IMG/VR virus record: IMGVR_UViG_3300010048_000011
Coordinates: 1-59,404 of that record
Reading direction: 5' to 3' (one strand)
Origin: a virus
Taxonomy: Duplodnaviria; Caudoviricetes
Length of the DNA stretch: 59,404 bases
Of the stretch, positions 4,863-54,539 are shown piece by piece. The position numbers and the translations under genes are program-made. Each line of letters opens with the position of its first letter. Within the stretch, counting starts at the first letter, position 1. Under the pieces are notes generated by a model. It was not told the origin of the DNA, did not search any database, and saw only the letters and a list, made by a program, of their open reading frames with translations.

Positions 4863-4869
4863 GAGGGCT

Positions 4870-6288: not shown

Positions 6289-6500
6289 TGAGTGGTGTAG
6301 TTCGACCGACGACACTTATCGACGTCTTGGCGACCATCAACCAGAACTCGCTTCCACCGGTACAGGCCGACGACACGACGGCGCAGGGAGTCTTTGTCGA
6401 GGCTGACGAGGCGATGACGCTGGCCGACTCCATGACGACGACTGTGGCGACACCAGCAGGCTGGGATGGGGGACTGTGGGGTTCGACCTGCTGGGGGTAG
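6288..6500 (+). CDS. Small minor tail protein
   Basis: TAATG coupling; C-terminal 'GWDGGLWGSTCWG' repeat typical of tail proteins. Confidence 0.6.
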   Translation: MSGVVRPTTLIDVLATINQNSLPPVQADDTTAQGVFVEADEAMTLADSMTTTVATPAGWDGGLWGSTCWG

Positions 6501-6507
6501 GAGGATA

Positions 6508-8298: not shown

Positions 8299-8304
8299 GA
8301 GTCG

Positions 8305-15444: not shown

Positions 15445-15569
15445 TCCTGTGTGGAGGCTCGTGGTTCCATCTGGTTCCATTGGTCCCTACCTATTGACCC
15501 AACTTCATACACGTACTTACCTTGGTGGCTGTACCGCTGGTGGCCAGCCCCCCAGTCACCAGGAATGCC

Positions 15570-34515: not shown

Positions 34516-37500
34516 GACTGAGTCCGCGCTACACGTCGCGCGTGATCTCGCAACGGCCGGTGTGCCGATCTTCGTCGCCCGGCCCGATCCCAGTGCCGCC
34601 ACGGGTTTTTCGCTTCCCGTCGGTTGGCAGACGACCAAGGCCGATCCCACAGTCGTGGACTCATGGCAGCCCGGAGACGCCCTCTGTGCTGTCATGGGTC
34701 ACGGCCTGGACCTCGTCGACGTCGATCCCCGTAATGGTGGCTCGCTGGACGCGGTACCGGTTCCGGAGGTCTACGGCCTGGCTACCACGCCGTCGGCGGG
34801 CGTGCATGCCTTCGTTCGGTCCCTGAATGTCCGCTCCCGCAACAACTTGGTGCCCGGTGTGGACGTCAAGGCGGGGGACAACGAGGGCCGTGGCCGGGGC
34901 TTCGCCTTCATCGCACCGACGGTGCGGCTGTCCAAGGTCACTGGTGAACGCGTCCCGTATGTGTGGCAACAAGAACCGCGCCTTCCCGAGTGTCCGTCGT
35001 GTGCCCAGGTCCACGCGTGGTATCCCGACAGGACCGACACGATCCCCGGGGACCATCGTTGTCCGTGGCCCGACGACCACTCGGGTGACCGCCTGGCGGA
35101 CATGATCCGGGTAGCGCATGGTCAGGTGCCGGTGATCCCGGCCGCCGACGTGGACAGCGTGAGTGTTCCGTCGGTCGAGAAATTCCTTGAGGTTGGCCCG
35201 TGGGTGGACGTCGAGAAAACCTTGCGGGGCGGGCGAAACGACGGCGTCATGCGGTTGGCCGCTGCCTTACGCGGTGAGGGTGGCTGGCCGGTCGAGCGGG
35301 CGTTGGACTACATGCGCGCGGTGGTCTGGCCGGGCATCGACCAGTCGCAGGCCGGTCACGAGTTCACAGTGGACGAGTTCGAAGGGATCATTCGTGGGGT
35401 TTGGGAGCGTTACCCTGATGGACGTGCCGCCCGGCTTGACGAAGCCGTCGACAGTGGGGCTGAACGACCTCCGGCGCTGGTGGGGGTTGGCCTGCTGGAC
35501 GCCTGGATTGTGGACCGCATCGCTTCGTCTCGGCTGTCCGGACGCTTTGTGTGGGCGCGGGGACTGGGCTGGCTGCAATGGGATGGCCGTCGGTGGGCCG
35601 CCGTCGATGGGTCGATCGTCGTCGACGACGTGCGGCAGTGGGTGCAGTGGCTGTACTCCTCCGCAGCGGCGGCCGGGGCCGATTCGGACCTGCTGAAAAA
35701 GATCGCGGGTCTGGGCGGCAAAGCACGGCTGTCGGGGCTGGTCGACCTGGCGCGCGGTGTTGCCGGTGTCCGGTGTGATGTCGGGGAGTTCGACGCGCAT
35801 CCGGATCTGCTGAATTGCGCTAACGGCGTGGTTGATCTGCGTACGGGCGCGCTCTCCGCGCATGATCCCGCGTTGCGGTTGACCAAGATCACTGACATTG
35901 ACTATGTCGTAGGTGCTGAATCGGGAGATTGGAAGGCTGCGTTAGAGGCGATTCCCGAGGAGATCCGCGAGTGGTGGCAGATCCGGATAGGCCAGGCGGC
36001 GACCGGCCACATGACTCCCGACGACCTGCTGATCGTCCAGGTGGGAGGTGGTGAAAACGGCAAAGCGCTGGATGTCGACACACCAATGTTCACCACGCGC
36101 GGTTGGACCACGATGGGGGAACTATCGGCAGGAGACCACGTCTATGCACCTGATGGCGCGGCAACGGAAGTTCTGAGCGCTTACCCTGTCCGGATTGATC
36201 GTCCCTGTTACCGCGTAACAATGACTGATGGGCGCAGCCTTGTTGCCGACGCGGAACATCTATGGACCGTCTATGACCGGCGTGCGCGCATGGATGTCAC
36301 ACTCACGACACAGGAAATGCTGGAACTCGGCATTGTCAAACGGGACCGCGCCGGGGGTCGTGAATTCCGGTTCGCGTTGCCACAGCAATTCGCGGTGCAG
36401 TCCGCGCCGGTTGGCGATCTACCCATTCCTCCGTATCTACTCGGGGTGTGGCTGGGTGATGGTACGCGGACGGCGGCACAACTCACGTTCGGCGAACAAG
36501 ACGCTGACGAATTGTGCGGTTATCTCACCGAGTGTGGGGCAAAAATCGTGTCTCGTCGGTTGGTCACGAGTACGGGCGGTGGCAAGTCCGTCAGTGTTCG
36601 TATCAACATCGAGGCTGGTGTCCGTGATGGTTTCGAGTCACGTGCGCGACGTCTTGGCGTGTGGGGTGAACGACGAATCCCGGAGTTGTACCTGACTGCG
36701 GGTACTGGTCAGCGGCTGGCGCTGCTACAGGGGTTGCTCGACACCGACAGCTACGTATCGGCAGGGCAAGGGCAGGTCGAGTGGACCACTGCGCATCAGC
36801 GGCTTGCCGACGACATGCTGATGTTGCTCCGGTCGCTGGGTTTTACGGCCAGGTGCCACGCATCAGCGGCGACATTGAATGGCCGCGAAGTCGGTCGACG
36901 GTGGCGGATCTGTTTCACCCCGTCGTCGGTTGACCTGGTACCTTTCCGGCTTCGTCGCCGTATTGATCGGTTGCGTGCTGGCGCCCGGCATCGCCCGATC
37001 AGCGTCGTATCTATTCAATCTGTCGAGTCGCGGCCCGTTCGGTGTATCCGTGTGGCGCATCCTAGCGCGCTCTACCTGGCAGGGAGGGGGCTTGTCCCGA
37101 CACACAACACCACCCTCATGTCCGCGATTCGGGGTGCGCTGGGCGAGTATTATCTCCTAGTCTCCCATCGAGCGCTCCTGGGTAGCAGCGATTCGGTTCC
37201 CACTGAACTTATGGATTTCCGTGGGGCTAGGTTGGCGCTCCTGGAAGAAACCCCAGAGGAACGACGACTCGCGGTCACTAAACTTAAGGCTCTCGTGGGA
37301 ACCCCGGAAATCACTGCCCGTCGGATGAGGCAGGACCCGGTCACCTTCCACGCATCGCACTCTTTGTTCATCAGTACCAACTACTTGCCGGTCGTTTCGG
37401 AGACCGATCACGGGACCTGGCGCCGGCTCGCTGCGGTGCGATTTCCCTATCGCTTTAGAAAAGGCTCTGAAACGCTCTCTGGGGCGCTGGACCGGCGGGG

Positions 37501-41368: not shown

Positions 41369-42244
41369 ATGACAGTCACGCATCACGCGTGTGCGGTGGA
41401 AGGCTGCTCGCAGGTCACACCCGTGCACCTCACGATCTGCCAGCGCTGTCTCAGTGAGCTGCTGACGGCGCTCTACGACCTGGCGGCAGGTCCGGAACTG
41501 CGGCCGGGATGTCCTGAGCCAGGGTTGATCGATGACCTGACCGACGTGATGGCGCGCCTTCGCCGTAGTGGCCTGGCGACCGGCGTGCTGAGCCATTCCG
41601 CAGAGTTCCCGTTGCCGTACAACGAAGCGGCGTCAGATCTGCTCTGGACGGTCAAGAACACGCTGAGGTCGTGGTGCGCGGAGGTCTACGAGTCGACGCC
41701 TGCGTATCGCGCGCAGCCCGCTCCGGCTGGCTCATCCGCGCAGCTCGCGCTCTGGCTCGCCTCCTCCACGGTGGGCATCGCCCGGCACCCCGACGTGGTG
41801 CAGATGCGAGACGAGCTGCTGTGGCTAGTTGGCAAGGTTCGCCGGACCGTGGATATCGCGCCGACGCGGATGTACCTAGGGGCATGTGGCGCGCAGCCGG
41901 ACAAGGTCTGCCGGGAGCCGATCTACGCCATGCCAGGACACACGGTCACGCGCTGCCCGGGATGTGGCGCCGAGTATGACGTCAAGCTCCGGCGCGGGCA
42001 GATGCTCGCGGACGCACAGGATCAGATCGCTCCGGCCGCCGACATCGCGCGGGCTATCTCGCTGCTGGGCCAGCCGCTCACTGTCCGACGCATTCGGGTG
42101 TGGGCGCATCGGGGCAAGCTCCAGCAGTACCCGCCACACGCGTTTGATCCTCGGGAGCGCCCCCGCTACCGGCTCGGGGACGTCGTGCGCCTGTACGTCC
42201 CAAAGAAGGGCGGCCCGTCGCTTGACTCAGCAGTAAAGCAGTGA
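41369..42244 (+). CDS. Zn-ribbon/HTH putative late transcription regulator
   Basis: Multiple CxxC pairs and C-terminal 'IRVWAHRGKL..YRLGDV' wHTH common in actinobacterial prophages. Confidence 0.7.
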   Translation: MTVTHHACAVEGCSQVTPVHLTICQRCLSELLTALYDLAAGPELRPGCPEPGLIDDLTDVMARLRRSGLATGVLSHSAEFPLPYNEAASDLLWTVKNTLRSWCAEVYESTPAYRAQPAPAGSSAQLALWLASSTVGIARHPDVVQMRDELLWLVGKVRRTVDIAPTRMYLGACGAQPDKVCREPIYAMPGHTVTRCPGCGAEYDVKLRRGQMLADAQDQIAPAADIARAISLLGQPLTVRRIRVWAHRGKLQQYPPHAFDPRERPRYRLGDVVRLYVPKKGGPSLDSAVKQ

Positions 42245-42457
42245 AACGCTTGAGTTACATATCGTAGGTGTACTGCGCAGAGGCGCAGCCCGAATATTTC
42301 GAGCCGCGCCTCTGATGCACGAATTCGTGGTGCTTGCGACAAACAGCGTCCGGTGGAACCAGGCCAGGTACCGACCGGAACTTGCTCGACTTTTTCTCCG
42401 ACCGTACCTCCGTTCGTGCTCGTTCGGTTTTGCGTTGACGACGGGAGGTTAATAACG

Positions 42458-42715
42458 TCACCGCCCGTCGTCAACAATGCGTGGCGCGCGCGGGATGAAA
42501 GTGTCCGGCGTGTGGTCCTTGCGCAAGGCGGCTTCCACATCTTCCTTGGCGAACTCGTCCAAGCCTCCTTTGCCGACACCGATAGGCGTCAGTCCGCGCC
42601 GGTGTGTCCAGGTCCGAGCCCCTTCGGGCGACGTTCCACGGACGTCAGCGATGTCGTGCTTGGTCAGTGTGTCGCCGTATTTCGTGAGCTTGGCAAGCTT
42701 CTCGCTGAGTTCCAT
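42458..42715 (-). CDS. Small MerR/Xis/BldC-like HTH protein
   Basis: 'LTKHDIA..G.S...RTW..RGL.P......F..EDV'; GAAAGG RBS. Confidence 0.65.
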   Translation of the reverse strand: MELSEKLAKLTKYGDTLTKHDIADVRGTSPEGARTWTHRRGLTPIGVGKGGLDEFAKEDVEAALRKDHTPDTFIPRAPRIVDDGR

Positions 42716-42737
42716 TGTGTGCCTTTCTGTCCGGTCT

Positions 42738-42795
42738 TGGTTCCGTCTGGTTCCATTTCACAGAGTGGGCAGGTCTGGTTCCGCTTGGTTCCATT
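42738..42795. promoter_or_regulatory. Two copies of the tandem operator TGGTTCCRYY-TGGTTCCATT
   Basis: The same 20-mer occurs at 15462, 26901 (reverse) and 53131. Confidence 0.6.
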
Positions 42796-42804
42796 CCGCC
42801 CGCC

Positions 42805-44136
42805 CTATGGCGTTGCTACGACCACTGTGCTATTCGATTCCGGTTGCGTGTGCTGCCCGATCACTACGATGAGGAAAGCCAACCCGATCACTACCCAGAA
42901 CATCACCAGCGCGGCTATCCATCCGTGTGACAGCGTGACCGTCTGCGGATCTTCCGCGACCTGGCGTAGCACCTGCATCGCTCGTGCTGCTGGCCGCTCA
43001 CACGGGACGTCGGATTGCGGAGGCAGCCACACCGGCAGTTGCGACACCTCCTCGGCGTCCTCTTCCTGCGGCCACAGGTACGCAGTGTCCGGGTACCTCT
43101 CCTGTGCCGCCAGCACGGCCGCCTCGATGTCCTCGTCGCTGGTGTAGGGCGTCTGCACCCGCAATGGGTCCCCGACGTCCTGAGCCATGTACAGCGCGTC
43201 GCCCTGGCCAAGCAGATGCTGAGCCCCGCTGCGGTTGAGAATCACGCCGCTGGCCGTGTGACTCGGCACCGCGAACGCTAGCCGCGACGGCACGTTGTCC
43301 TTGATGAGCCCCGTCACGACGTCCACAGACGGACGCTGAGTCGCTAGCACCATGTGGATACCGGCGGCCCGCGCCTTGCCCGCCAGGCGGACGATCAAGG
43401 GCTCGATCTCCTTGCGTGCACGCGCCATGAGGTCCGCCAGCTCGTCCACGATCACGACGAGGTAGGGCAGCGTCAGCGCGTCTGATACCGCGCGGTTGTA
43501 GGCAGTGAGTTCGCGGACCTTGTGTGCACGGAGCAGGCTGTACCGTCGATCCATCTCGTCACACAGCCACTGGAGCGTGTCTACGGCATCGTCGGGATCA
43601 GTGACGATCGGGCAGGCCAGGTGTGGAACGTCGGCGTATGCCGCCAGCTCCACCTCTTTGGGGTCGACCAGCACCAGGCGCATGACCTCCGGACCGCATC
43701 GGTTGATCAATGACACGATGACGTCGTTGATGTAGACCGACTTACCCGACCCCGTCGCCCCGGCCACAATCCAGTGAGGCATGGTTGCGAGGTTCCGTGT
43801 CTGCGGATGACCGGCCGTGTCGATCCCCAGGGGGACCGTGAGCGGGTGCCCGCCGTCCAGCGGGACATCCTTGAGCAACACAGTCTGCCGGTCGGCACGG
43901 GGCAACTCGATGCCCATCACGGACTCGCCCGGCACCGGAGACAGGATACGGACCGACGTTGCCGCCGTCCGCATCTTGATGGTCTCCGCTAGGCGTAGTA
44001 CCTCCTCCGGCCGTACGCCGTCCCGCAGCTCCACGCTGTACAGGACAGTCGTCGGCCCCGTCGTTACCTTGACCACGTGCGCACCGACGCTGTGGGCGGT
44101 AAAGATCTTGTCCAGTACTGCCGTCTGGTCGGTCAT
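42805..44136 (-). CDS. ftsK: FtsK/SpoIIIE motor-domain protein with a C-terminal TM helix
   Basis: GATGSGKS, VDPK.VEL, VDELADLM, 'ARAAGIH..LATQRPS', 'GA..LLGQGD'. Confidence 0.92.
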   Translation of the reverse strand: MTDQTAVLDKIFTAHSVGAHVVKVTTGPTTVLYSVELRDGVRPEEVLRLAETIKMRTAATSVRILSPVPGESVMGIELPRADRQTVLLKDVPLDGGHPLTVPLGIDTAGHPQTRNLATMPHWIVAGATGSGKSVYINDVIVSLINRCGPEVMRLVLVDPKEVELAAYADVPHLACPIVTDPDDAVDTLQWLCDEMDRRYSLLRAHKVRELTAYNRAVSDALTLPYLVVIVDELADLMARARKEIEPLIVRLAGKARAAGIHMVLATQRPSVDVVTGLIKDNVPSRLAFAVPSHTASGVILNRSGAQHLLGQGDALYMAQDVGDPLRVQTPYTSDEDIEAAVLAAQERYPDTAYLWPQEEDAEEVSQLPVWLPPQSDVPCERPAARAMQVLRQVAEDPQTVTLSHGWIAALVMFWVVIGLAFLIVVIGQHTQPESNSTVVVATP

Positions 44137-44225
44137 GCGATCACCTCCTTTCTATTGCCTCACTGCCTGTCTGGCAGCTTGCACCGCACACGGGCTAGCC
44201 GCGTACGATGCGAGATGTCAGAAGT

Positions 44226-44507
44226 TCACTCAGCAACTAGCGCATCGCGAATCAAACGCAATGTCTCGTCGTTCACAGTGCCCTTACAGTATGAAATCTC
44301 GTTGGGCACGTCGCCCGCTTCATTCACGGGAGTTACGCCGATCCACACGTTAGGGTCGTCGATGTGCAGCCCATGGCTTTCGGCCCACGCGAGGATTTCT
44401 GCCGGAACGGTAACGCCTGCTTGTCCTACATCCACGAGTCTGCCGTTCGTTTCTCCACGTACGACAGACCAGTAGACTTCGTTTCTGAACTCTGGCTCGT
44501 TGCTCAC
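44226..44507 (-). CDS. Array hypothetical protein
   Basis: GAGGGAG RBS; GTGA overlap. Confidence 0.65.
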   Translation of the reverse strand: MSNEPEFRNEVYWSVVRGETNGRLVDVGQAGVTVPAEILAWAESHGLHIDDPNVWIGVTPVNEAGDVPNEISYCKGTVNDETLRLIRDALVAE

Positions 44508-45223
44508 TGCGTTACTCCCTCATTGCGTTGGTATCTGAACCACCCGCCGAATTGACTCAATTTGACATGAATGACCTTTTGGCCGTGCTGACATTCGATT
44601 GCGTACATGGCACGATCGAGCAGGTTAGCGCCGCCCAGATCCCACCGGCCGTTATCGATGACATATGTCGCTGACGCCGCTGACGCATCACCACGTGAGA
44701 AAAACGTCTCGGCGAGGATCTCGCCAGTCTCGCTCACTACACAGCCGTGCGGTTTGTCACCTTTGGACGCTGCGTTTTCGGCCCAGGTCGCGAGTTGTTC
44801 GGCATTGGCCGGATTACCGCTAGCGGCTGTCATGATGGCCTTGGCCTTCTCCGCGAAATGTGGATGCCCGGATAGCGCGAACTGCGTCTCCGGTTCGTCC
44901 GTGGGGTAACCGAAGTCTCCGATCTCCTCGCCCCAATAGGCCAGCCCCTGACTCGTCAGTACTGAATCGTCGGACTCTCTGCCGACCCACTCACGGCCGT
45001 CGTGGTGTGCTGCTGCGCCGTGCAGCTCGACGAACCACCTTCCGTCGGTGTCGGCGTCGAGCTGGACGAGCGAGTCACCGGCTGGTGTCCATACCCGCCC
45101 GTCGGCGTCGGTGGTCGATCCATCGGCGTACACCTCGCTCACCTCTGTCGGGGTAAGCGTATTGAGGTGTTTCGCCAACTCATCACAAGCTGACTTGTAA
45201 GCGGATTGATTGGTGTAGCGCAC
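44504..45223 (-). CDS. Array hypothetical protein (acidic)
   Basis: AAGGAGGT RBS and GTG. Confidence 0.75.
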   Translation of the reverse strand: MRYTNQSAYKSACDELAKHLNTLTPTEVSEVYADGSTTDADGRVWTPAGDSLVQLDADTDGRWFVELHGAAAHHDGREWVGRESDDSVLTSQGLAYWGEEIGDFGYPTDEPETQFALSGHPHFAEKAKAIMTAASGNPANAEQLATWAENAASKGDKPHGCVVSETGEILAETFFSRGDASAASATYVIDNGRWDLGGANLLDRAMYAIECQHGQKVIHVKLSQFGGWFRYQRNEGVTQ

Positions 45224-45299
45224 TCTTACCTCCTTGACTCCCTGCCTTGTCTGGCAGCTTGCACCGCACACGGCACGAGTCCGCGCACGATGCGAGCGG

Positions 45300-46097
45300 T
45301 CAGCCTCGCACTACTCGCACAGGTTGCCAGTCGGTGTCATCCTCGGGCATGACCAGTTCGAACACGCATCGTCTGACCTCGTCATCGGTGGTCGGCGCCG
45401 TCAGCAATCCGTCGATCGTGATCGCGTAGGCGTTCGCGAAGTCCCGTAGCTCCTGCTCATCGCGGAATGCTGTCCAGTTGGTACCAGCGTGACCAGGTTT
45501 GTACACAACGAACGAATATTGGTTGTTCCATACTCGTCTGGTCCACTCCGAGGTGTACGCCGGTCGGATGGCGCCTCGCGCACGTGCACCAGGCCGTGTC
45601 AGGATCGTTTCGCCATGCAGGTCACGCCTGATGCGCTGCGCCTGGTGCGGTAGCTCGGCCGCCCCCCGGTACAGGACACCGTCCCCGAGTTCGGACAGAT
45701 CGATTGGCGATCGTGCGCGCCGTCTGATTATGCCACCTGGTGCGGGCAGCGAGCACGTGAACACCCGCAGAGGTGTCATGGTGTGCACTCCGTTGTGTGC
45801 CTGCCACATGTCGTGATGGAAGAACCACACCGCGCCGTCTCGTATCTCGTCTGTCGCGGTCAGCGTGTCGGGGGGAACACCTTCGTATAAGGTCCCGGAC
45901 ATGCTGATTCCGGCCTCGCCGAGATTGAACGCACCACCATCGGTTGTCTGGATAGAATTGTCCCAGATGTAGGCGATTCGTGCTGTGATGCCGTTCGCGA
46001 AGTCGACATGATCGCCGAGGCGTGGTCCTTCGATCTTGTCGAACGCTTCCATACGACTGCGAAGGATCTCGGCGTCGATTGCGTCAAATTCCGCCAT
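45300..46097 (-). CDS. Array two-domain protein; N-terminus DUF4121-like
   Basis: 'GPRLGD..SGT..VWFFHHD...AHNGV' resemblance; RBS and ATG. Confidence 0.7.
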   Translation of the reverse strand: MAEFDAIDAEILRSRMEAFDKIEGPRLGDHVDFANGITARIAYIWDNSIQTTDGGAFNLGEAGISMSGTLYEGVPPDTLTATDEIRDGAVWFFHHDMWQAHNGVHTMTPLRVFTCSLPAPGGIIRRRARSPIDLSELGDGVLYRGAAELPHQAQRIRRDLHGETILTRPGARARGAIRPAYTSEWTRRVWNNQYSFVVYKPGHAGTNWTAFRDEQELRDFANAYAITIDGLLTAPTTDDEVRRCVFELVMPEDDTDWQPVRVVRG

Positions 46098-46176
46098 CTT
46101 TATTACCTCCTTGACTCACTGCCTGTCTGGCAGCTTGCACCACACCGAGCATTGTCTCTCGGCATGATGCGAGCGG

Positions 46177-46344
46177 TCAGTTTTTGTTGTCGAACGAACT
46201 TATTCCCGCAGCCTTTTCGAGCTCGCTAGCTGCCATCCATAGCGCATCCTTTCCTGTTTTGGTGCGTCCCTCTGCGATGGCGCGAAGAAATCCCGCGATC
46301 TCGGGGACAGCGGCAAGAGCGGATAGTGACAGTTCGTTGGACAT
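46177..46344 (-). CDS. Array 55-aa protein (absent from the ORF track)
   Basis: MSNELSLSAL...; its TGA is the first codon of the repeat element. Confidence 0.65.
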   Translation of the reverse strand: MSNELSLSALAAVPEIAGFLRAIAEGRTKTGKDALWMAASELEKAAGISSFDNKN

Positions 46345-46345
46345 G

Positions 46346-46789
46346 TCAGCAGCCCTTTTGGTTGTCTCCGTTGAAAACGTCCCCTTCGACGCACGTCACG
46401 ATGGCGGCCGGAGGAGGGTTCAGCCGCTCGCACTCGTCGTAGGCCGCGCCATAGTCCTCGCTACGGAACGTCACGGCCATCTCTTGCAGCTCCCCATTGC
46501 CATACGCCACCCAATCGCGGTAAGGCACGACTAGGTAGTCATTGGTCGGGTTGCTGTTGCTGCGGGGCATGATGAGTACATAGGACACGGACTCGCCTGC
46601 CCGCTGAACCACGCGCAGGTTTTTGTCACGACGTAGCGGGATGGCCGGACCATTCTCCACGAACACCGTGTGAAAAATCGGGTCGTCGTATGAGTATTGG
46701 TCAGGCTCGATCTTCATCACGGTGCCGATGCGCTCGCGATCACGCATGGCCACGATTCGGTCACCGATTTGCGGGTCACCCTTCGTTAC
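46346..46789 (-). CDS. Array hypothetical protein (non-canonical GTA/ACG start likely)
   Basis: RBS then an open frame xTKGDPQIGDRIV (SH3/KOW-like); first canonical start is 36 nt later. Confidence 0.6.
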   Translation of the reverse strand, partial: VTKGDPQIGDRIVAMRDRERIGTVMKIEPDQYSYDDPIFHTVFVENGPAIPLRRDKNLRVVQRAGESVSYVLIMPRSNSNPTNDYLVVPYRDWVAYGNGELQEMAVTFRSEDYGAAYDECERLNPPPAAIVTCVEGDVFNGDNQKGC

Positions 46790-46873
46790 TGCTACCTCCT
46801 TGACTCACTGCCTGTCTGGCAGCTTGCACCACACCGAGCATTGTCTCTCGGCATGATGCGAGCGGTCAGACGC

Positions 46874-47074
46874 TCACGGCATCACCTCGTCATCGTCCAG
46901 CTTGATCCCGAAGTCGCCGACCGTGTTGCCTTTGATGTCACGCAGACTGCCTGCCGAGACGCCGTCTCGGAGCTGGTCTGCGACTGTGGTAAGAATGCGG
47001 GCGATCTCCTCGTCCCGACCATCCTCGAAGGCCGCGTTACCCAGCCCAGTGATCAGCACACGAAACTGTGCCAT
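46874..47074 (-). CDS. Array small phage protein
   Basis: 'NAAF..EIARIL..LRD.KGNTVG' motif; RBS and ATG. Confidence 0.75.
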   Translation of the reverse strand: MAQFRVLITGLGNAAFEDGRDEEIARILTTVADQLRDGVSAGSLRDIKGNTVGDFGIKLDDDEVMP

Positions 47075-47161
47075 CCTTACTACCTCCCTGCTTGTTCCTA
47101 TCCAGCCTGATCGGCCAGCACAGCGTACGGCCCCTGCGTCCATACACCATGCCGTGGCTGG

Positions 47162-47443
47162 TCAGCTAGTGACTTCGGGTCGCGTGACGATGATCGCGGC
47201 GTGGTTAAGATTCTGATGCGCCACTCTCGTGATGTAGCCACCTTCATGCAGCGTTGACACGACGTCGGCGACAATCGCAGGCATCTCCGGATTGTCTTTG
47301 TCGTAGCTGATTGACACCCACACCTCATAATCGCCCAACTGTCGCGCTGACATACCTGCACGCCTACGGTCGGGGAATACCAGGGTGTGCCCCTTGCTTT
47401 TGAGAAAGCGGGATACGTTTTGCGTTCGAATATGCACCCTCAC
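47162..47443 (-). CDS. Array hypothetical protein
   Basis: RBS and GTG; stop at the element. Confidence 0.7.
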   Translation of the reverse strand: MRVHIRTQNVSRFLKSKGHTLVFPDRRRAGMSARQLGDYEVWVSISYDKDNPEMPAIVADVVSTLHEGGYITRVAHQNLNHAAIIVTRPEVTS

Positions 47444-47530
47444 TTCTGTTACCTCCTTGACTCGTTTCTAATAGGTCTGATCGACCAGCACAGCGCACAG
47501 CTCTGCGTCTGTACGCCATGCCGTGACCGG

Positions 47531-47842
47531 TCAGCCGAAAATGGTCTGTGTGATCTCCTTGTTCCTATTGCGGTGCCCCTGGCAGATTGAATCCTTACCG
47601 TCGTATTGGACTGGGCCAGAGCAAGGACTCTCCGTGCGTGCACTTACACAGCCGTTCGGTTGCGGCCACTGGCTTGCCAGCGTGGTCACGTGCCGCGCAG
47701 CCTCTTCGTGGTCGTCACACAAATACAGCGCAGGGCCGGACTCGGTGACGTGGAGTACGTATGCCTTCTCGTCATCCCCAAAGACGGTAACCGACTCGTC
47801 GCCGTGTCGTATGGACTTTCCTGAAACCAGTCTATGTGGCAT
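47531..47842 (-). CDS. Array hypothetical protein
   Basis: ATG just after the previous stop; stop at the element. Confidence 0.65.
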   Translation of the reverse strand: MPHRLVSGKSIRHGDESVTVFGDDEKAYVLHVTESGPALYLCDDHEEAARHVTTLASQWPQPNGCVSARTESPCSGPVQYDGKDSICQGHRNRNKEITQTIFG

Positions 47843-47844
47843 CT

Positions 47845-48258
47845 TTACTCTGCTTCCCTGAGAGTGAGGAGATGAATGGGCAAGTCGCCGGTAACATCCT
47901 CATCGTTGGCCGTAGCATGCAATACGACGGGGTGGTTTTTGCCCTGGTGTTGTGAGCCATCCCAGCGAACGTGATACATGCTCACGTCAGTACCGTTGTC
48001 CAACGTATACCGGGCGTCGCCCGGGTTGTCTATTGCATTCGGCCAGAAAACGAACGTCAGGCCGTTGTCGTCTTTCGATATCTCGCTATTCTCGATATAC
48101 CACACTGCGTATCCGCCAGTGGTTCTGGCTGGCTCAGATTCTGTGAGCACACAGGACCAGTGCCAAAGTTCCGCGTTAGGGCCGCCGTTTTCAGCGACCA
48201 CACGGAGATATGACCGTGCGTCTGCTTCGTGTGGGTCATCCCTATCCATAGCGACCAC
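47845..48258 (-). CDS. Array protein, paralog of 48340-48789
   Basis: Shared 'ELW.W..VL...EPAR...YAV..F.FW...I..P..A.Y.LD.G'. Confidence 0.75.
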   Translation of the reverse strand: MVAMDRDDPHEADARSYLRVVAENGGPNAELWHWSCVLTESEPARTTGGYAVWYIENSEISKDDNGLTFVFWPNAIDNPGDARYTLDNGTDVSMYHVRWDGSQHQGKNHPVVLHATANDEDVTGDLPIHLLTLREAE

Positions 48259-48339
48259 CGTTCTACCTCCTTGACTTAATCTGGTCTGATCGACCAGCAC
48301 GGCGCACAGCTCTAGGTCTGCACACCATGCCTTGGCTGA

Positions 48340-48789
48340 TCAGGTCGGCTTGACCACGTTCAACTGAGCCAGAATGTCATCCGGCACGGTTGCGTCGTTC
48401 GGTGCCTTGTTGATCTTCAGATGGTAGGACTTGCGAGGTCCGAGCGACCACGTGTTGTAGTCAATCACTCCACTCGGGTTGACCGGGTATGTCTGTAACC
48501 AGATCGGCAGGCCCTTGTCGCTTTTTCTGCTCCATCCGGTCACGTAGTAGGGTACGGCCGTTTTGCCATCGTCGAGTACGTACACGGCATTGTGCGGCTT
48601 GCTGATCTCGTCTGCCCAGAACGCGAAGACAGGCTCCCCGTTCGCTTTGCTGGTGCACCGCACCGCGTAGCTTGCCGTGTAGTTGCGCGCGGGCTCGTGG
48701 TTGTCGAGTACCGCTCGCCAGTACCACAGTTCGGGATTGTCGACTGTTTCCATGTACTCCCGTACGGCTTTCCCGTGCAACGCATCCAC
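48340..48789 (-). CDS. Array protein, paralog of 47845-48258
   Basis: Same shared motif; RBS and GTG. Confidence 0.75.
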   Translation of the reverse strand: MDALHGKAVREYMETVDNPELWYWRAVLDNHEPARNYTASYAVRCTSKANGEPVFAFWADEISKPHNAVYVLDDGKTAVPYYVTGWSRKSDKGLPIWLQTYPVNPSGVIDYNTWSLGPRKSYHLKINKAPNDATVPDDILAQLNVVKPT

Positions 48790-48872
48790 GTTGTTCTACC
48801 TCCTTGACTTACTGCCTGCCTGTCTGGCAGCCAACGCAGTACCCGAGCCACGCTCAGGCACCACGCAAGCGG

Positions 48873-49130
48873 TCAGCCCGTAGGGCACTCCCATGTCGAC
48901 GTCCGGATGTTGTAGACCTTGTCGTCGTCCGGGTGTCGGCACGGCGGAGGATCGTTGCACGGTCTGATGTAGATCGCCGGTCCGTCGCCGTCGGTGCGCA
49001 CCCATTTCGTTTCGGTGCACAGTGCGCCGTCCTGCTGGTAGGTCCCTGCGAATGTCGCGAGGATCAATTCTGCTGATTCGCCGTAACCGTCGCAGATCTT
49101 GCGTCCGTTCTTGTACGAAATGAAGTACAC
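48873..49130 (-). CDS. Array hypothetical protein
   Basis: RBS and GTG; stop at the element. Confidence 0.7.
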   Translation of the reverse strand: MYFISYKNGRKICDGYGESAELILATFAGTYQQDGALCTETKWVRTDGDGPAIYIRPCNDPPPCRHPDDDKVYNIRTSTWECPTG

Positions 49131-49213
49131 GTTACCTCCTTGACTCACCTTGCTTCGGTCTGATCGACCAGCATGGCGCACAGCTCTAGGTCCGTACACC
49201 ATGCCGTGATTGA

Positions 49214-49510
49214 TCAGAGCTTCATTCGGACTAAGTCGTCTGCGCCGTCACCGCTGGGCGGTTCCCCGTTCCGCAGGCGTTCCGCCACTGCCGCAGCAAC
49301 GGTCATGTTGCCACAATACGTTCGATCGCCGTTGTCCCACCGTATGATGGTTTGTGACACCATTTCTTTCGCGTTGGGAAGGCCAAACTTGTCTAGGGCG
49401 ATCCCCTGGTCATAAACGACAATGTCCCGCTGATCGTCTTTGAACGCGATCAGCCACGTCTGTACGACTGTCGCGTGCACGGTATCGGTGTCCACTCGGT
49501 ACTTTTCCAT
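49214..49510 (-). CDS. Array hypothetical protein
   Basis: RBS and ATG; stop at the element. Confidence 0.7.
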   Translation of the reverse strand: MEKYRVDTDTVHATVVQTWLIAFKDDQRDIVVYDQGIALDKFGLPNAKEMVSQTIIRWDNGDRTYCGNMTVAAAVAERLRNGEPPSGDGADDLVRMKL

Positions 49511-49596
49511 TGCTACCCCCTTGACTTACTGCCCTGTCTGGCAGCCAACGCAAGGGACAGACCTGTGTGGTCTAATCCCTCACGCAAGGTGTCAGC

Positions 49597-50037
49597 TCAC
49601 TTGCAATACAGACAATTACAGAACACATTGTCTTCGTGCGGAGTGCCCGTACATTCGATCGGGTCATCTCCGTTATTTGCCTGGTAGTCGCCGCCACGCG
49701 GGTCATCCTGATAACGGACCAGGTTGTATTCCGCTCCGCAGTAGTTACAGGACTCATGGGTCCACCTGTGGTGACGCGATTCGTCGTAGCCAGTCGTTTC
49801 ATTGAACGCGTGACCGAACGACGACCAGACGTGAGTGACGTAAGTCCAACTGTTGTCCGGTCGCCATTCGAACGATCTGCCGTTGTCCTCTGCGTAGTAG
49901 TTGCACAGTAATCGAGTGATCTCAGCGTCATCGTGTCGCTTGCGGAACTGTATCAATGCCTGTGTGGCATTTTCTGCGAACAGTTCGGCGACGACCGTTG
50001 AGCCATACTCTTTGTACTCGATACGCGCATACGCCAT
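49597..50037 (-). CDS. Array Cys/His-containing protein
   Basis: RBS and ATG; CNYC and CNCLYC. Confidence 0.7.
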   Translation of the reverse strand: MAYARIEYKEYGSTVVAELFAENATQALIQFRKRHDDAEITRLLCNYYAEDNGRSFEWRPDNSWTYVTHVWSSFGHAFNETTGYDESRHHRWTHESCNYCGAEYNLVRYQDDPRGGDYQANNGDDPIECTGTPHEDNVFCNCLYCK

Positions 50038-50119
50038 GTGCGTTACCTCCTTGACTCTGACTGCGGATGTAGCAGCCAACGCGGTACACAGACGCTCGGT
50101 CTGTGCGCCACGCAAGCTG

Positions 50120-50500
50120 TCAATCGCGCCATTCGCTTGTGACGTCGCTGGCCTTCGTCGGTAGGTAGTGCTCACCTAGTAACCGCCGCGCCGTCGCAAC
50201 GTCGTTGTAGATCACTTTCATGACCGTGTTACGAAACGCCTGATCGGTCCGGCTGATCACCACGAACACGGCCGACGTCACGTCGGCTAGTAGGTCGTAG
50301 ACCACTTCACCGACAATCAGAACGAAGTCCTCACGTCGGTGGCCGGTTTTGATCATCTGGTCGAACGACGATCGCCCCTGCGCGATCACAGAGTTGTTGA
50401 CCTCATCGGAGATGTCTTCCGTAGGTCCCTCTCCACTGTTGTCGAGTAGCGTCGTGAGTCGCTGTACCGCCTGGTCTGTAGTCAGCACCGTACTCGTCAT
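50120..50500 (-). CDS. Array hypothetical protein
   Basis: RBS and ATG; stop at the element. Confidence 0.7.
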   Translation of the reverse strand: MTSTVLTTDQAVQRLTTLLDNSGEGPTEDISDEVNNSVIAQGRSSFDQMIKTGHRREDFVLIVGEVVYDLLADVTSAVFVVISRTDQAFRNTVMKVIYNDVATARRLLGEHYLPTKASDVTSEWRD

Positions 50501-50586
50501 GCTCTTAACCTCCTTGACTCTGACTGCGCTTTTCTGGCAGCCAACGCAAGGGACAGACCATGCGGTCTAATCCCTCACGCAAGTTG

Positions 50587-50733
50587 TCAGAATTCGTCAT
50601 CTACTTCTCTGGCGTAGCAATTCCACCGACGTACCAATCGGCAGGACAGCAAGGCCAACCGACGGTATTTCGTGCGGAACACGTGAGCCTGTTGACCTTT
50701 GAGCTTGGTATCGAACACGTAGTATCGACGCAT
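50587..50733 (-). CDS. Array 48-aa basic protein (absent from the ORF track)
   Basis: GGAG RBS; MRRYYVFDTKLK...; TGA starts the element; resembles the N-terminus of 50749-51180. Confidence 0.65.
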   Translation of the reverse strand: MRRYYVFDTKLKGQQAHVFRTKYRRLALLSCRLVRRWNCYAREVDDEF

Positions 50734-50748
50734 GTCCAGGCTCTCCGT

Positions 50749-51180
50749 TCAGACCGTGTCGACCGTGAGCCACCAAAAACCCATGTCCACGTTGTGGTGC
50801 CAATCCCATGGGACAGCAATCCACAATGTCGGGCCATAGGTGGCGATCCACCCCATGGCGAACCCTGCGAGTACCGTCACGATCAGAGCCACGACCAGCC
50901 CCATTCGCACGCATACCCACAGCGTGAGCAGCGGCCGGACGTCGTCGTACCAGATTGCTCGAACGTCATGGCCGAACTCCGCCAGGGCTTCCCGCATGTT
51001 GTGGATTTCCCGCTCTACCTCACGGACTTCGTGGCTGATCGTGTCACTGACCAACTCGTCATGCCGGGCGCTGTAGTCGTAACGAGGGTTACGGCCGCAG
51101 TACCATCGGGCGATGAATTCCGGTGCTCTGAATAGGTATCCGCTCTCCTCTTTGGGGTCGAATACGTATTTCAGCGCCAT
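50749..51180 (-). CDS. Array membrane protein
   Basis: RBS and ATG; C-terminal TM. Confidence 0.7.
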   Translation of the reverse strand: MALKYVFDPKEESGYLFRAPEFIARWYCGRNPRYDYSARHDELVSDTISHEVREVEREIHNMREALAEFGHDVRAIWYDDVRPLLTLWVCVRMGLVVALIVTVLAGFAMGWIATYGPTLWIAVPWDWHHNVDMGFWWLTVDTV

Positions 51181-51278
51181 CGCGCTACCTCCTTGACTCT
51201 GGTTACCACCTTGGCAACCAACGGGCAGGCACGTCCATTAAGGACAATGCCTCCCGCAAGCTGTCCGGTGATCAATAT

Positions 51279-51575
51279 TCAGACGTTCCAAGCGGTCGAC
51301 AGATACCGTCGAAAGACTTTCCGCTTGCGCTGGGTGCGCAATGTGAGAGCGATCAGGAGAGGCGCCACGATCAATTCGTCTAATGGCCCCGGAATGAACA
51401 TGCACACACCAACCACGGCGAGTTGCCACGGTTCCATATGCCGCTGGCCGTAGCGGTGCACAGCTAACAGGCATCTTTGCGTCCTTGGGTAGGCGGCTAA
51501 GAGTCCTGCGACTACGCCAACCGCGCCGAGTAGCTTTCCGGCATCGATCAGCGCACCGATTAGGTTTGCGATCAC
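51279..51575 (-). CDS. Array membrane protein
   Basis: RBS and GTG; 'FIPGPLDELIV'. Confidence 0.7.
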   Translation of the reverse strand: MIANLIGALIDAGKLLGAVGVVAGLLAAYPRTQRCLLAVHRYGQRHMEPWQLAVVGVCMFIPGPLDELIVAPLLIALTLRTQRKRKVFRRYLSTAWNV

Positions 51576-51669
51576 TTTTTCGCTACCTCCTCGACTAGCG
51601 ATTGCCACCACGGCAACCAACGGCAGGCACGTCCGCAGTGGACTGTGCCTCCCGCAAGTGGTCTGGTGA

Positions 51670-51996
51670 TCACAGGTCGTTCTGCGCTTCGTACATTTCC
51701 TCTTCGTTCAGCTTGGCGAGGCAGTAAGCGACGCTTTCGCCGCATTCGTGCATCATTTCTTCGAGTTTCTCAGCACGGTCGCTACTGCCTACCAGGCAAC
51801 GCAGTGAGTACCGCAGTGCGAACCGAACACCCGCGTAGGGTGTCGGAATCGCACTATATTCTCGCACGTCGTGCGAGTTGTCGCTTGCGTAGTGCCGTAG
51901 GTCGGCTGACACTCCGTCGTCAACCTGGTTGCACTTGAGTAGCATGGTCCAAAGATCTTCGGCCATTGCTAAGTGAACTTCAGTGTTACCGTTCAT
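51670..51996 (-). CDS. First gene of the array
   Basis: AAGGGAG RBS and ATG; stop at the element. Confidence 0.7.
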   Translation of the reverse strand: MNGNTEVHLAMAEDLWTMLLKCNQVDDGVSADLRHYASDNSHDVREYSAIPTPYAGVRFALRYSLRCLVGSSDRAEKLEEMMHECGESVAYCLAKLNEEEMYEAQNDL

Positions 51997-52014
51997 CGGT
52001 CTATCTCCCTTGCT

Positions 52015-52096
52015 CTTGACTACATCGGGAAAGAGCACGGCTTGTGAGTGGAAATGACCACTCGCTCATTCCGTGCCCCACCCTGAATTAGTCAAG
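52015..52096 (-). promoter_or_regulatory. Long leader hairpin heading the array
   Basis: CTTGACTA...TAGTCAAG enclosing GCACGG/CCGTGC and GAGTGG/CCACTC stems. Confidence 0.55.
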
Positions 52097-52762
52097 GTAG
52101 GAGGTATTTGCCTCTATGGAATTCTCAAAGATCACAATCGGCTCACTAGTCTCAGCGCTGCCTTACTCGTCATGAGTAACCCGTTGCATAGCTCTGCGCC
52201 ATGCTTGCCCTTTATGGACACACTGAGTGGGTACCGCCCGCGTGAGCGATTTTGAGTTGTAAAGGTGCATGCCCTGCGAGAGTGGCCCCCTGGAAGAGGA
52301 CCCGCCCCCGTTGGCGATGGGAGGATCCTGACACAGGCTGTGTCATACGCGCTACAAGATGTGACCCAGACCACATGACAGCTTGTATGCCCTGGTGAGA
52401 GCCCTGCACACCAGCCTGCATGTGATGGCCCGGCTGCCCGCCTGGTAGCCCCTGAGAGCCCCTGGGCCAGCCTGCCGGGCACCGTGGCGCACCCTGCCCG
52501 CTAGCGCACCGCAGGGAGCCACTGAGCGGCCCCTACGCACGCGGCTACGCCTGCGCCGACACAACGCCCACCATGGGTGTATGCCTATGCGCGACGATGC
52601 ATAGGCACCAACGCATGCCTGCGCCGTGCCCTGACCGCCGATAAGTAGACGTTACCGGAGGCCAGGCCAGGTAGCAGCCCCTGTACCCCCACCGACCCCC
52701 CACGGGGGTTGCGTCCGATCGGCCGCCGACAGGATACAAGCGGTCCCCAGGTTTATGTCTTC

Positions 52763-52802
52763 CGCGCATGATCGTGTGTTGCTCGCGCATGATCGTGTGT
52801 TG
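52763..52802. repeat. 19-bp tandem direct repeat
   Basis: CGCGCATGATCGTGTGTTG twice with a 21-bp period. Confidence 0.8.
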
Positions 52803-53339
52803 ATCTTCCTTCGGTAGGGCTCTGACCAGGGAATATGCTACAGCCGGCGGGGTCCACACAGGACGGACGGACGCGCGTGGTCAGCGGAATCGACGATGCA
52901 TGGTTATACATGACCCATAGGTGTCGGCGGCGTTAACAGTTACCACCTTTAAGGACCATCGGCACCATGCAGAGCGGCCGTTCGACCGGTTGTCAATCCA
53001 CATAGGACCGTGGCAAGGTGGCGCCTGCCCGGCACACCACGTAGGTGTCCGTGCGCCCTAGCGGCCGGGGCCAGCCGGGTTCCGTCGGTTGGTCTCGGTC
53101 GCGAAAATACCTCACGTTCCCTCTACGGCCTGGTTCCATCTGGTTCCATTTGCCCGCCCCCATGGACAACCGACGGAACCCTCTTTTAGTCTTTTCCTCG
53201 CTGCGGTGCTACCGGGTCTGACCACAATCGTCGGTATGCCGTTCGCGATGAAATCGACACATCCACACCGCAGGCAGCACTCTCGCACAAGTTCGGGACA
53301 CCACACCAATACCCGTCGGGGTAGCCGGTATGTGGGAGA

Positions 53340-53726
53340 GTGCTGTCTGTTGTGGACGGAAGCCGGGGCGAGGAATTGCAGTACACATTGCTGTGTGTGC
53401 GGGTGGGCGAGTTGCCTAGCGAATACGTGCCGCCGTCGGCCAGGCCGAGACTGTGCCGGGCCTGCGGACTGGGCGTGTGGGCGAGTGGGCGAGTTCTGCC
53501 GGACATTGACACGCGGGTGGCGATGCCGGTCTGCATGGAGTGTGCGGCGGCTGAGCTGGTGCACCTGCCAGAGTCGGAGTGGCCCCAATTGCATCCGGCC
53601 TTGATCGAGGAGGCAAGCGAACTGGGCATCTCGCGAGAGGCGCAGGTAAAGCTAGTGCGCCGCTTGACTCAGACCTTACAGCGCTCGACCGCTAGTGCCC
53701 TGTGGGTGCCGGGGAAGCCGCTGTAA
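53340..53726 (+). CDS. Zn-binding hypothetical protein
   Basis: GGGAG RBS; CRAC...CMEC. Confidence 0.6.
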   Translation: MLSVVDGSRGEELQYTLLCVRVGELPSEYVPPSARPRLCRACGLGVWASGRVLPDIDTRVAMPVCMECAAAELVHLPESEWPQLHPALIEEASELGISREAQVKLVRRLTQTLQRSTASALWVPGKPL

Positions 53727-53740
53727 GTATCGGGGAGAAA

Positions 53741-53840
53741 CGAAAGCCCTCTCGAAGCCACGTCGAGAGGGCTTTCGTCTGTGCACCGTTACGCTCACAT
53801 AAAGAAGGGCTCCCCCTGGGATCACCAGAGAGAGCCCTTC
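53741..53840. terminator. Twin hairpins
   Basis: CGAAAGCCCTCTCGA..TCGAGAGGGCTTTCG and GAAGGGCTC..GAGCCCTTC. Confidence 0.6.
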
Positions 53841-53921
53841 AGCGCGGTCGAACTTGCGGAACACTTGCTAGTTGAGCGATGGAAGCTGTTCCCGTTTGGA
53901 CCCTCGTCCCGAGCTACATAG

Positions 53922-54539
53922 GTGAGGCGGAAACAGGAAAAGAGTACCACACCCGGAGGTGGTTCGGCGGCAGACGAGGTGGAAAAGAAAATCTACTACA
54001 ACCCGGACGGCACGGTGTGGGAGCCAGAGTTCCCGAAGCAGCGGCCCCCGTTTCAGAAGGGCGTTGCGATCACTCGTTTGCACGGCGCCAATCCCTACCC
54101 GGGCAGCCAAACCGTCGGTCCGCGAGCAGAGGAGATTTTGGCTCGGTACAAGGCGATGCCGTCATGGCCACCGTACCTTGAGGACCCGAGTTGGGCGCCC
54201 GCGCTGCGGAGCTGGAGCCGCGCCGAAGCCGTCTGTGAGCTGCTGACGGAGTACCTGGCGGGCATGGACATCCAGCGAGCGAACTCCGACATCATCGACA
54301 CTGTTGAGAACTCTAAAATCGAGATCAACGCGGCCGGTGCCCAATTGTCGTATCGGCAGAGCAAGACGCATCGCGAGGCCAGTCCCTTGGAAATGTTGCG
54401 TAAGTTCGAGACGATTGCATCCAATCACCGCAACCGGCTGGGACTCGATCCTCTAGGCCGCGCCCGACTCGGTAAAGACATCAGCCAGACGAAGACTGCG
54501 GACCTTGCGGCCTACTGGCAAACAGAAGGTGAGAGCTAG
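53922..54539 (+). CDS. Putative terminase small subunit
   Basis: 'HGA' motif, helical core, 'LGLDPLGRARL' C-terminus like P27-type TerS; upstream of terL. Confidence 0.6.
   Translation: MRRKQEKSTTPGGGSAADEVEKKIYYNPDGTVWEPEFPKQRPPFQKGVAITRLHGANPYPGSQTVGPRAEEILARYKAMPSWPPYLEDPSWAPALRSWSRAEAVCELLTEYLAGMDIQRANSDIIDTVENSKIEINAAGAQLSYRQSKTHREASPLEMLRKFETIASNHRNRLGLDPLGRARLGKDISQTKTADLAAYWQTEGES

Follow-up and report, generated by a model that had tools for sequence, protein, structure and literature searches.

The 59,404-bp stretch of DNA analysed here (the window) is the whole of the IMG/VR virus record IMGVR_UViG_3300010048_000011, a linear sequence of 60% G+C with a CheckV completeness of 88%. 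Between positions 42805 and 51996 it carries 19 minus-strand genes, 18 small ones (g1-g18) and then ftsK, and this leftward array is punctuated by 14 elements of 75-88 nucleotides (nt) each, which lie within 44142-51672, every one of them on the minus (coding) strand. Small-ORFan operons of phages are the expected home of host-takeover and counter-defence genes, and both their expression and their exchange are poorly understood. A preliminary description of this DNA had reported 14 strand-specific double-hairpin elements that divide about 17 small leftward genes, together with ftsK, into one- or two-gene units; all 14 were recovered in place and on the minus strand, and this grouping was borne out, with the count of small genes corrected to 18.

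Every spacer displays the same order of parts on the coding strand: UGAY, a long hairpin (H1), a short hairpin (H2), the 12-mer AGUCAAGGAGGU and the start codon. The 12-mer is exact in 10 of the 14 copies, and these 10 coding-strand occurrences are the only ones in the 59.4 kb, the other strand having none. The Shine-Dalgarno (SD) sequence is a perfect 8 nt (AAGGAGGU) with a conserved GUC directly 5' to it, and the start codon follows the SD by 4-10 nt, except at E11, where the first in-frame start lies 41 nt after it. Stop-to-start spacers measure 76-98 nt (120 nt at E11). The stop codon preceding the element is UGA in all 14 cases, compared with TGA in 33 of the 68 open reading frames (ORFs) of a crude set taken from the rest of the genome. 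As first described, this UGA is the element's first triplet in 10 copies; at E02, E05, E11 and E14 the stop lies 7, 5, 8 and 8 nt, respectively, before a second, out-of-frame UGAY.

A pairwise identity matrix divides the elements into three subfamilies, A (E11-E14), B (E06, E08-E10) and C (E01-E05, E07), with E01 and E02 forming a sub-branch within C. Identity between subfamilies is mostly 55-70%, and B- and C-type copies are interleaved along the array (E05 C, E06 B, E07 C, E08 B). Two H2 sequences coexist, CUGCC-AGACA-GGCAG and GGUC-GAUCA-GACC. The array is itemised below, where bit scores are those of R1, a covariance model whose training set was the 10 A- and C-type copies and whose structure comprises a closing helix (UGAC:GUCA), H1 and H2.

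51585..51672, minus strand: E01, C-type branch; the g1 stop UGA is the first triplet, followed by H1, H2 (UUGCC-GUGGU-GGCAA) and AGUCGAGGAGGU; 61.4 bits
51187..51274, minus strand: E02, C-type branch; g2 stop 7 nt upstream; 57.8 bits
50508..50589, minus strand: E03, C-type; follows the g3-g4 unit; 67.9 bits
50045..50122, minus strand: E04, C-type; 77.8 bits
49515..49594, minus strand: E05, C-type; stop 5 nt upstream; SD AAGGGGGU; 72.5 bits
49134..49216, minus strand: E06, B-type; H2 GGUC-GAUCA-GACC; 28.9 bits, E 5.3e-5, outside the training set
48798..48875, minus strand: E07, C-type; 76.5 bits
48265..48342, minus strand: E08, B-type; 33.5 bits, E 4e-6, outside the training set
47451..47533, minus strand: E09, B-type; follows the g10-g11 unit; H1 CGGCAUGGCGUACAG/CUGUGCGCUGUGCUG; 32.6 bits, outside the training set
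47082..47164, minus strand: E10, B-type and the most divergent; lacks GUCA; SD AGGGAGGU; 24.1 bits, E 7.5e-4, outside the training set
46794..46868, minus strand: E11, A-type; 100% identical to E12; stop 8 nt upstream; 83.5 bits
46105..46179, minus strand: E12, A-type; follows the g14-g15 unit; found by R1
45228..45302, minus strand: E13, A-type; 78.9 bits
44142..44220, minus strand: E14, A-type H1 and H2; upstream of ftsK, with its own longer SD GAAAGGAGGUGAUC; GGCA replaces GUCA; 65.3 bits
44226..51996, minus strand: g1-g18, 18 small ORFan genes of 48-265 amino acids
42805..44136, minus strand: ftsK/spoIIIE-like gene, the last of the array; PF01580, E 1.4e-54

Folding of the individual elements gave an H1 of 13-18 bp in each copy (-21.6 to -26.0 kcal/mol) and an H2 in the 10 A- and C-type copies (-3.6 to -8.3 kcal/mol). 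The B-type H2, GGUC-GAUCA-GACC in E06, E08 and E09 and a variant of it in E10, was read from the sequence, the folded segment having lost the 5' GG of the stem. The minimum free energy of the sense strand (-32.6 to -41.3 kcal/mol) was lower than that of the antisense strand (-18.4 to -33.5 kcal/mol), and the sense fold was the more stable in all 14 elements; z-scores of the element folds were based on mononucleotide shuffles.

An unfiltered search of the entire record, both strands included, with model R1 returned 14 matches at E ≤ 7.5e-4, all on the minus strand, and among them were the four B-type copies that had been left out of its construction (24.1-33.5 bits). The next best match had an E-value of 0.16, and no further match at E < 0.1 was found elsewhere in the 59.4 kb. 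In the resulting 14-copy alignment 94% of 300 cells form standard pairs, as opposed to 26-45% after a shift of the 3' partners by 1-3 columns. Changes on both sides were observed in 15 of 24 pairs, against 7.4 ± 1.7 in shuffles, of which none in 500 reached 15. By helix, the both-sided changes fall in 11 of the 13 pairs of H1, three of the five of H2 and none of the four of the closing helix. Although this alignment was fitted to the R1 model, an independent one agrees for H1: with a plain MAFFT alignment of the 14 copies, RNAalifold predicted 13 H1 pairs, of which 11 show compensatory changes. The identity matrix and the compensatory changes together confirm that the three subfamilies differ in sequence and keep the pairing.

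The abundance of G-U pairs that was first described is likewise present: there are 53 G-U cells and only five A-C cells in the alignment (43 and four within H1), so that pairing would be far poorer on the antisense strand. This excess, taken with the more stable sense folds, indicates that the structure belongs to the coding-strand transcript and not to the duplex DNA. The elements are therefore structured RNA modules, specific to one strand, that connect a stop codon with the SD that follows, and it is the presence of three subfamilies with clean covariation in a single genome that makes an RNA-level reading strong.

This order of parts is not unique to the present phage, contrary to the suggestion first made that no known element shares it. 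In the sections of PMC7953290 that deal with the repeats of cluster M mycobacteriophages (reporting on Pope et al. 2014, J Virol 88:2461), conserved repeats CR3/CR4 with upstream stem-loops are described, with no function assigned there. Read together with our analysis of the phage Estes (MT657341), these sections place in the cluster M arrays a stop, a stem-loop, often a second short hairpin, a conserved SD-bearing repeat and a start. In Estes the leftward genes 157-172, small hypotheticals, are separated by twelve spacers of 74-109 nt. The 11 spacers that were aligned (a 76-nt spacer lacking the repeat motif and a separate 459-nt spacer were left out) contain a stop, a long hairpin, often a short hairpin (CUGCUG-UAUUC-AGCAG or GGUC-AAUUCA-GACC), ACACGGAGAAGGGA, 5-9 nt and ATG, and RNAalifold predicted 20 pairs for them, 16 with compensatory changes and many of them G-U. 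The two arrays resemble each other in comprising small leftward genes of unknown function near a serine integrase, in their strand-specific, G-U-rich elements with the same part order, in spacer length and in the UGA-type triplet, often the real stop, at the 5' base of the fold. Moreover, in both cases inserted genes are accompanied by a copy of the repeat, in so far as PMC7953290 describes this for cluster M.

The two families nevertheless differ in sequence. The SD motif of Estes is ACACGGAGAAGGGA and that of the present phage AGUCAAGGAGGU, and the Estes motif has no match at ≤2 mismatches in our phage. R2, a model of the Estes spacers, found one of the 14 elements (E 8.6); R1 reached at best E 0.12 in the Estes right arm (locus L064, 55000-83601); and no tblastx match at 1e-4 linked the phage record to Estes, of which 78.6 of 83.6 kb were compared. 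The folds also differ in where the stop finds its partner. In Estes this lies in the loop region of H2, so that an extended stem and H2 are alternatives and, in predicted folds, look mutually exclusive, whereas in the present phage the partner GUCA comes after H2 and would close a three-way junction. The architecture is already known from cluster M and, as judged from these comparisons, the sequence family is new; the array described here is a second, sequence-unrelated instance of the cluster M-like layout, with clean internal covariation and three subfamilies in one genome.

The three-way junction had been part of the preliminary description. It can indeed be drawn, with UGAC:GUCA as its closing helix, in about 12 of the 14 copies (the exceptions are E10, which has no GUCA, and E14, which has GGCA), and covariation neither supports nor refutes this helix, since none of its four pairs changes on both sides. 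If the junction forms, a ribosome terminating at the UGA might melt the closing helix and the base of H1 and so unmask the SD, or might be handed across to reinitiate. Such translational coupling would account for the UGA before every element and its place as the first triplet in 10 of them, and for the capacity of UGAY to pair with the GUCA adjoining the SD. It would also suit Estes, where the real stop forms the 5' strand of the closing helix in five of 11 spacers (L064 20841-26453, minus strand; UGA:UCA three times, UAG:CUA twice). Two further Estes spacers have a non-stop UGAA in the stop's place, and the four exceptions in our phage behave in this way too. That those four retain a non-stop UGAY 5-8 nt downstream of the real stop speaks against coupling. 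Typical phage coupling uses overlapping stop and start codons, for which an 80-nt spacer is unnecessary. The closing helix, as stated, lacks covariation in this genome. Finally, partition-function folding predicted an unpaired probability for the SD of 0.22-0.77 in the free element and of 0.21-0.82 with the stop region held open, an essentially unchanged accessibility that counts against the termination-coupled unmasking of the ribosome-binding site that had been put forward. We regard coupling as quite unlikely.

The head of the array bears on the same question. The approximately 1.1 kb upstream of g1 (52100-53200) contains no confident gene, and yet g1 is preceded by a related hairpin.

52012..52104, minus strand: head-of-array leader hairpin, a variant 15th element; long and imperfect, ending GUAGUCAAGAGCAAGGGAG just before the g1 ATG

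The fold predicted for positions 51990-52115 (126 nt) has a free energy of -52.2 kcal/mol (z = -5.08), and none of 200 shuffles was as stable. In it, ACCUCCU at the 5' base of the hairpin pairs with the g1 SD, and the 3' strand ends AGUCAAG followed by the SD, so that translation of g1 could depend on processing or opening of this hairpin. A hairpin in front of a gene that has no confident upstream neighbour speaks against coupling; it fits processing sites that flank every cistron and not a device worked by terminating ribosomes.

The strength of the H1 hairpins (-21.6 to -26 kcal/mol) at every gene boundary raises the possibility of transcription attenuators, either factor-independent or factor-dependent, and two-hairpin RNAs can act on polymerase, as the put RNAs of HK022 do. 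Attenuators would lower expression stepwise along the operon or depend on an antiterminator supplied by the phage. None of the 14 elements was called terminator-like on the coding strand; the 9 nt 3' of H1 contain only 1-3 U and no U-tract, and according to PMC3993855 mycobacterial RNA polymerase requires such a tract. An intrinsic terminator was rejected on these grounds. Fourteen terminators in series would, moreover, silence ftsK, and the real terminator of this genome looks different.

53840-53804, minus strand: canonical-looking terminator, a 16-bp stem followed by a T-rich tail, upstream of the ~1.1-kb stretch; unlike the elements

Attenuation is accordingly held to be extremely unlikely. 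Promoter identity was also rejected, as the elements carry no promoter consensus and the count of promoter-like sites in 42000-54500 (two) is not above the 3.7 ± 2.0 expected; one of these sites (minus strand, 46193-46164, 9/12) overlaps E12 and the other 13 elements have none.

Conservation is distributed unevenly along the element. H1 keeps its shape while its sequence varies among the subfamilies, a pattern that fits recognition of shape or a purely thermodynamic role and not a sequence-specific binder of H1, whereas in H2 and the SD region the sequence itself is conserved. The latter could be explained if H2 and GUC-AAGGAGGU formed an operator at which a phage or host RNA-binding protein coordinately represses or activates translation of all cassettes; analogues are T4 RegA or RegB and the coat-protein operators of phages. 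H2 and the bases flanking the SD are far more conserved than H1, and a GUC 5' of the SD would, on what we take to be the 3' end of 16S rRNA, not extend SD pairing. The same argument from conservation beyond SD pairing is made in the relevant part of PMC3203893 for the start-associated sequences (SAS) of cluster K mycobacteriophages. An operator sits poorly, though, with the coexistence of two different H2 sequences, and it leaves the strong shape-only conservation of H1 unexplained. A non-exhaustive scan of the encoded proteins revealed neither an RNA-binding protein nor an RNase. A common operator is, in our estimation, improbable.

The SAS itself and its companion ESAS (PMC3203893, PMC11373665, PMC12699233) invite comparison. 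According to the portions of these papers that concern them, the SAS is a 13-bp consensus located 3-9 bp before start codons, with an upstream inverted repeat in a subset of cases, and the ESAS is a 17-bp imperfect inverted repeat whose arms the authors found not to support RNA pairing and which was later read as a SigA-like promoter with an operator-like inverted repeat. On that description the SAS is like the present motif in being orientation-specific, in containing an SD, in extending beyond rRNA pairing and in standing a few bases before many starts; the SAS consensus nevertheless has no match at ≤2 mismatches on either strand of our phage, and the elements, unlike ESAS, covary on the RNA strand and have no promoter consensus. 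Nor was any described family matched in Rfam: at gathering score there were no matches in the whole record, and at E ≤ 10 over 43900-52400 only two weak ones to miRNA-precursor-like families (E 1.5-2.3), both on the head hairpin.

The elements may also have served as sites of exchange. A stretch of 77 nt is shared at 100% identity by E11 and E12, the identity stops exactly at the element borders, and the pair flanks g14-g15. The gene behind E11, g14, has no start near the SD; instead, a 20-codon ORF (46717-46779, minus strand) begins 14 nt after the E11 SD and ends GUGAUG, overlapping a possible ATG of g14. Logan contigs of the probable source run (46133-46840) break inside E12 and E11, and the contig between the breaks has a mean word depth of 4.6 as compared with 8.4 in its neighbours, word depth not being copy number; this is a weak hint that g14-g15 may be polymorphic for presence or absence in the source. 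A contig joint of 48111 to 50978 was disregarded because its shorter side comprises only 22 letters. The paralogous genes g9 and g10 (47845-48789, minus strand; 36% identity over 99 amino acids, E 2e-13) sit behind elements of different subfamilies.

These observations would follow if the elements were homology units, or selfish units akin to miniature inverted-repeat transposable elements, that shuffle cassettes at the DNA level, with the RNA fold incidental. The interleaving of B and C types could be added in favour, and there are precedents. The PeSL of T4-type phages, a sigma-70 promoter with a terminator stem-loop, are repeated modules that flank ORFan genes in plastic regions and whose recombination shuffles cassettes, as related in the part of PMC2839356 concerned with them; and inserted genes of cluster M carry associated copies of CR3 (PMC7953290, same sections as above). 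The elements differ from PeSL, which work at the level of transcription, in that they have no promoter or terminator signature and are each fused to a stop and an SD. Recombination needs identity and not pairing, and the compensatory changes and the 53:5 ratio of G-U to A-C show selection on one RNA strand; because of this G-U excess recombination cannot be the sole selected function. All 14 copies, furthermore, point the same way and keep a constant register relative to stop and SD, and no terminal inverted repeats with target duplications were found at them.

Integron attC sites are comparable as imperfect inverted repeats in one orientation, with strand-specific structure, between promoterless cassettes; an attC site, however, works as a folded single strand of DNA that carries core sites at its ends, and it requires the tyrosine recombinase IntI. 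A six-frame search of the record gave no match to the PF00589 tyrosine recombinase, attC-like core motifs were present in none of the 14 elements, and the G-U pairs point to RNA. REP/BIME elements are similar in that stable intercistronic hairpins near stops can block 3' exonucleases and modulate operon expression, but they are host-chromosomal, occur in both orientations and have neither an SD nor a fixed register to the start. A primarily DNA-level element is thus very unlikely. Recombination of cassettes at the elements is likely as a side effect of their RNA function, and the role as homology unit that had been proposed from the sequence is circumstantially supported, by the identity of E11 and E12 around g14-g15, the start of g14 and the contig breaks.

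Overall, the elements are conserved in structure at the RNA level, strand-specific, held in a fixed register between stop and start and devoid of terminator or promoter features. Cleavage, stabilisation, an effect on translation and early timing are inferred. In the reading that we favour, with a probability of roughly 0.5, the elements would be cis-acting structured spacers within one polycistronic mRNA, here termed intercistronic punctuation modules, that provide processing or stabilisation together with independent, strong initiation. A host endoribonuclease would cut the transcript at or beside each element, the candidates being RNase III, acting on the stack of H1 and the closing helix, and the actinobacterial RNase E, which would cut 5' of C where a short linker, for example GU/CA, is left single-stranded. 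Once cleavage has taken place, the upstream cistron would be shielded by H1 from 3' exonucleases. The downstream cistron would be protected, and its translation driven, by H2 together with a ribosome occupying the very strong SD. Expression of each one- or two-gene cassette would then no longer depend on the cassettes beside it, and the repeated, directly oriented elements would also provide the joints at which cassettes are gained and lost.

One parallel to such punctuation is found in the early regions of T7 and T3, where RNase III sites (Dunn and Studier) are reportedly intercistronic hairpins among small genes and the processed hairpin stabilises the upstream message. Like those sites, the present hairpins lie between cistrons, with one before the first gene, and lack a U-tract; they differ from them in the second hairpin, the obligatory fused SD and the shorter H1, and show no relation to them in sequence or in Rfam.

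Several points weigh against nuclease processing. A classical RNase III substrate spans about two helical turns, so that H1 is short at 13-18 bp and reaches approximately 19-24 bp only if a 2-bp extension and the 4-bp closing helix stack upon it, and that helix does not covary (of its pairs two are invariant and one changes on one side). The sites of T7 usually possess an internal loop that directs a single cut; none is conserved in H1. The linkers left unpaired are short, and the context for RNase E is matched in some copies only. The head hairpin, by comparison, is long enough for an RNase III-type helix. The host is known only indirectly, through protein similarities described below, and the background on host RNases applies only if it is a mycobacterium-like actinobacterium. 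In addition, the searched collections yielded no relatives of the phage or of the element family.

A wider proposal, which we offer tentatively and consider unlikely as a whole, is that unrelated actinophages have a general punctuation RNA in common, acquired by independent evolution or by exchange of the principle and not of the sequence; in it, a stop paired into a junction ending at the next SD would programme both nuclease processing and ribosome hand-over. The repeats would be integrase-free recombination joints, and ORFan cassettes would become plug-and-play in DNA, in mRNA and in translation at once. Should processing or insulation prove true, the element would also be a compact part for multi-gene operons in actinobacteria. 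The three subfamilies offer ready-made compensatory variants for reporter work in M. smegmatis.

The array genes themselves, put forward at first as possible early host-takeover or anti-defence genes, gave few leads. No Pfam match was obtained for any of the 18, and a clear PHROG match for one only, g13, to phrog_9027 and phrog_33848, both families of unknown function; tblastn of g13 found only distant matches in Brevundimonas, Caulobacter and Bacillus phages. For g10 there was one borderline PHROG match (E 0.0094, 0 matched stretches), and an Atlas search with g16 and g17 gave no usable match.

Elsewhere the record encodes an exonuclease, a SNF2 helicase, an AAA ATPase, a helix-turn-helix regulator with DUF5753 and the N-terminal part of a large terminase, whose gene runs off the 3' end of the record. 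It also encodes a serine integrase.

17593-19155: serine integrase
34562-40075, plus strand: a single 1,837-amino-acid ORF with primase, helicase and family A DNA polymerase PHROGs matched along its length

The latter appears to be a fused primase-helicase-polymerase replication protein. No tRNA genes were found in the 59.4-kb record, and an RNase III domain, present in an actinobacterial control genome, was not found in the phage record. The phage FtsK is closest to those of cluster J mycobacteriophages (~49% amino acid identity), and from this and the DUF5753-bearing regulator we infer that the host is probably an actinobacterium. The sole public run that contains the phage, and probably its source, is a DNA soil metagenome.

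Relatives were sought by several routes. The DNA of 44100-52100 had no match in INPHARED (50,697 phage records; near and distant modes). Protein searches of IMG/VR seeded with FtsK and with the terminase returned 55 loci, none above 51% identity, and 80 loci, none above 38%, respectively, and a search seeded with g16 returned none; an integrase search of genome contigs found no relative of the phage. In a set of 5.8 billion proteins g16 had only two relatives, both partial: P0002 and P0003 align to 44-45% of the query with 48% identity. A scan for the H2 plus SD pattern found no match in viral contigs, three single matches in metagenome contigs, all lacking H1 (R1 E 0.2-0.3), and two single matches in genome contigs, both of Proteobacteria. 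Over 56 loci (1.03 Mb) model R1 gave only one match at E ≤ 1, a weak one of 26.9 bits in locus L046. This is a single intergenic stop-hairpin-SD spacer, present in one copy (L046 20236-20312, minus strand, the same as G001:C1:33617-33693) in a 113-kb phage with terminal repeats, and its H1 starts like the C-type H1 of the array (CUUGCGUGAG).

SD-bearing repeats were also screened for directly, as 11-mers occurring at least five times on one strand, in the phage record and in loci L009-L148 (an estimated ~2 Mb). Tandem and coding repeats aside, the screen flagged only this phage, Estes and an unrelated viral contig, L058. In the last (4122-9321, plus strand) GAAAGGAAGGT occurs six times directly 5' of start codons, some copies being preceded by a GC-rich hairpin and others by the promoter-like TTGTGATATAAT; on present sequence evidence it is another extended-SD repeat family.

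A different direct repeat, containing GGTTCCATCTGGTTCCATT, is present in the phage record in four copies (15446-15498, two in 42722-42812, and 53115-53167). It brackets the array: two copies closely follow the ftsK stop, a third precedes g1 by about 1 kb, and the fourth comes after the gene that ends at 15444. These repeats may be binding sites for a regulator.

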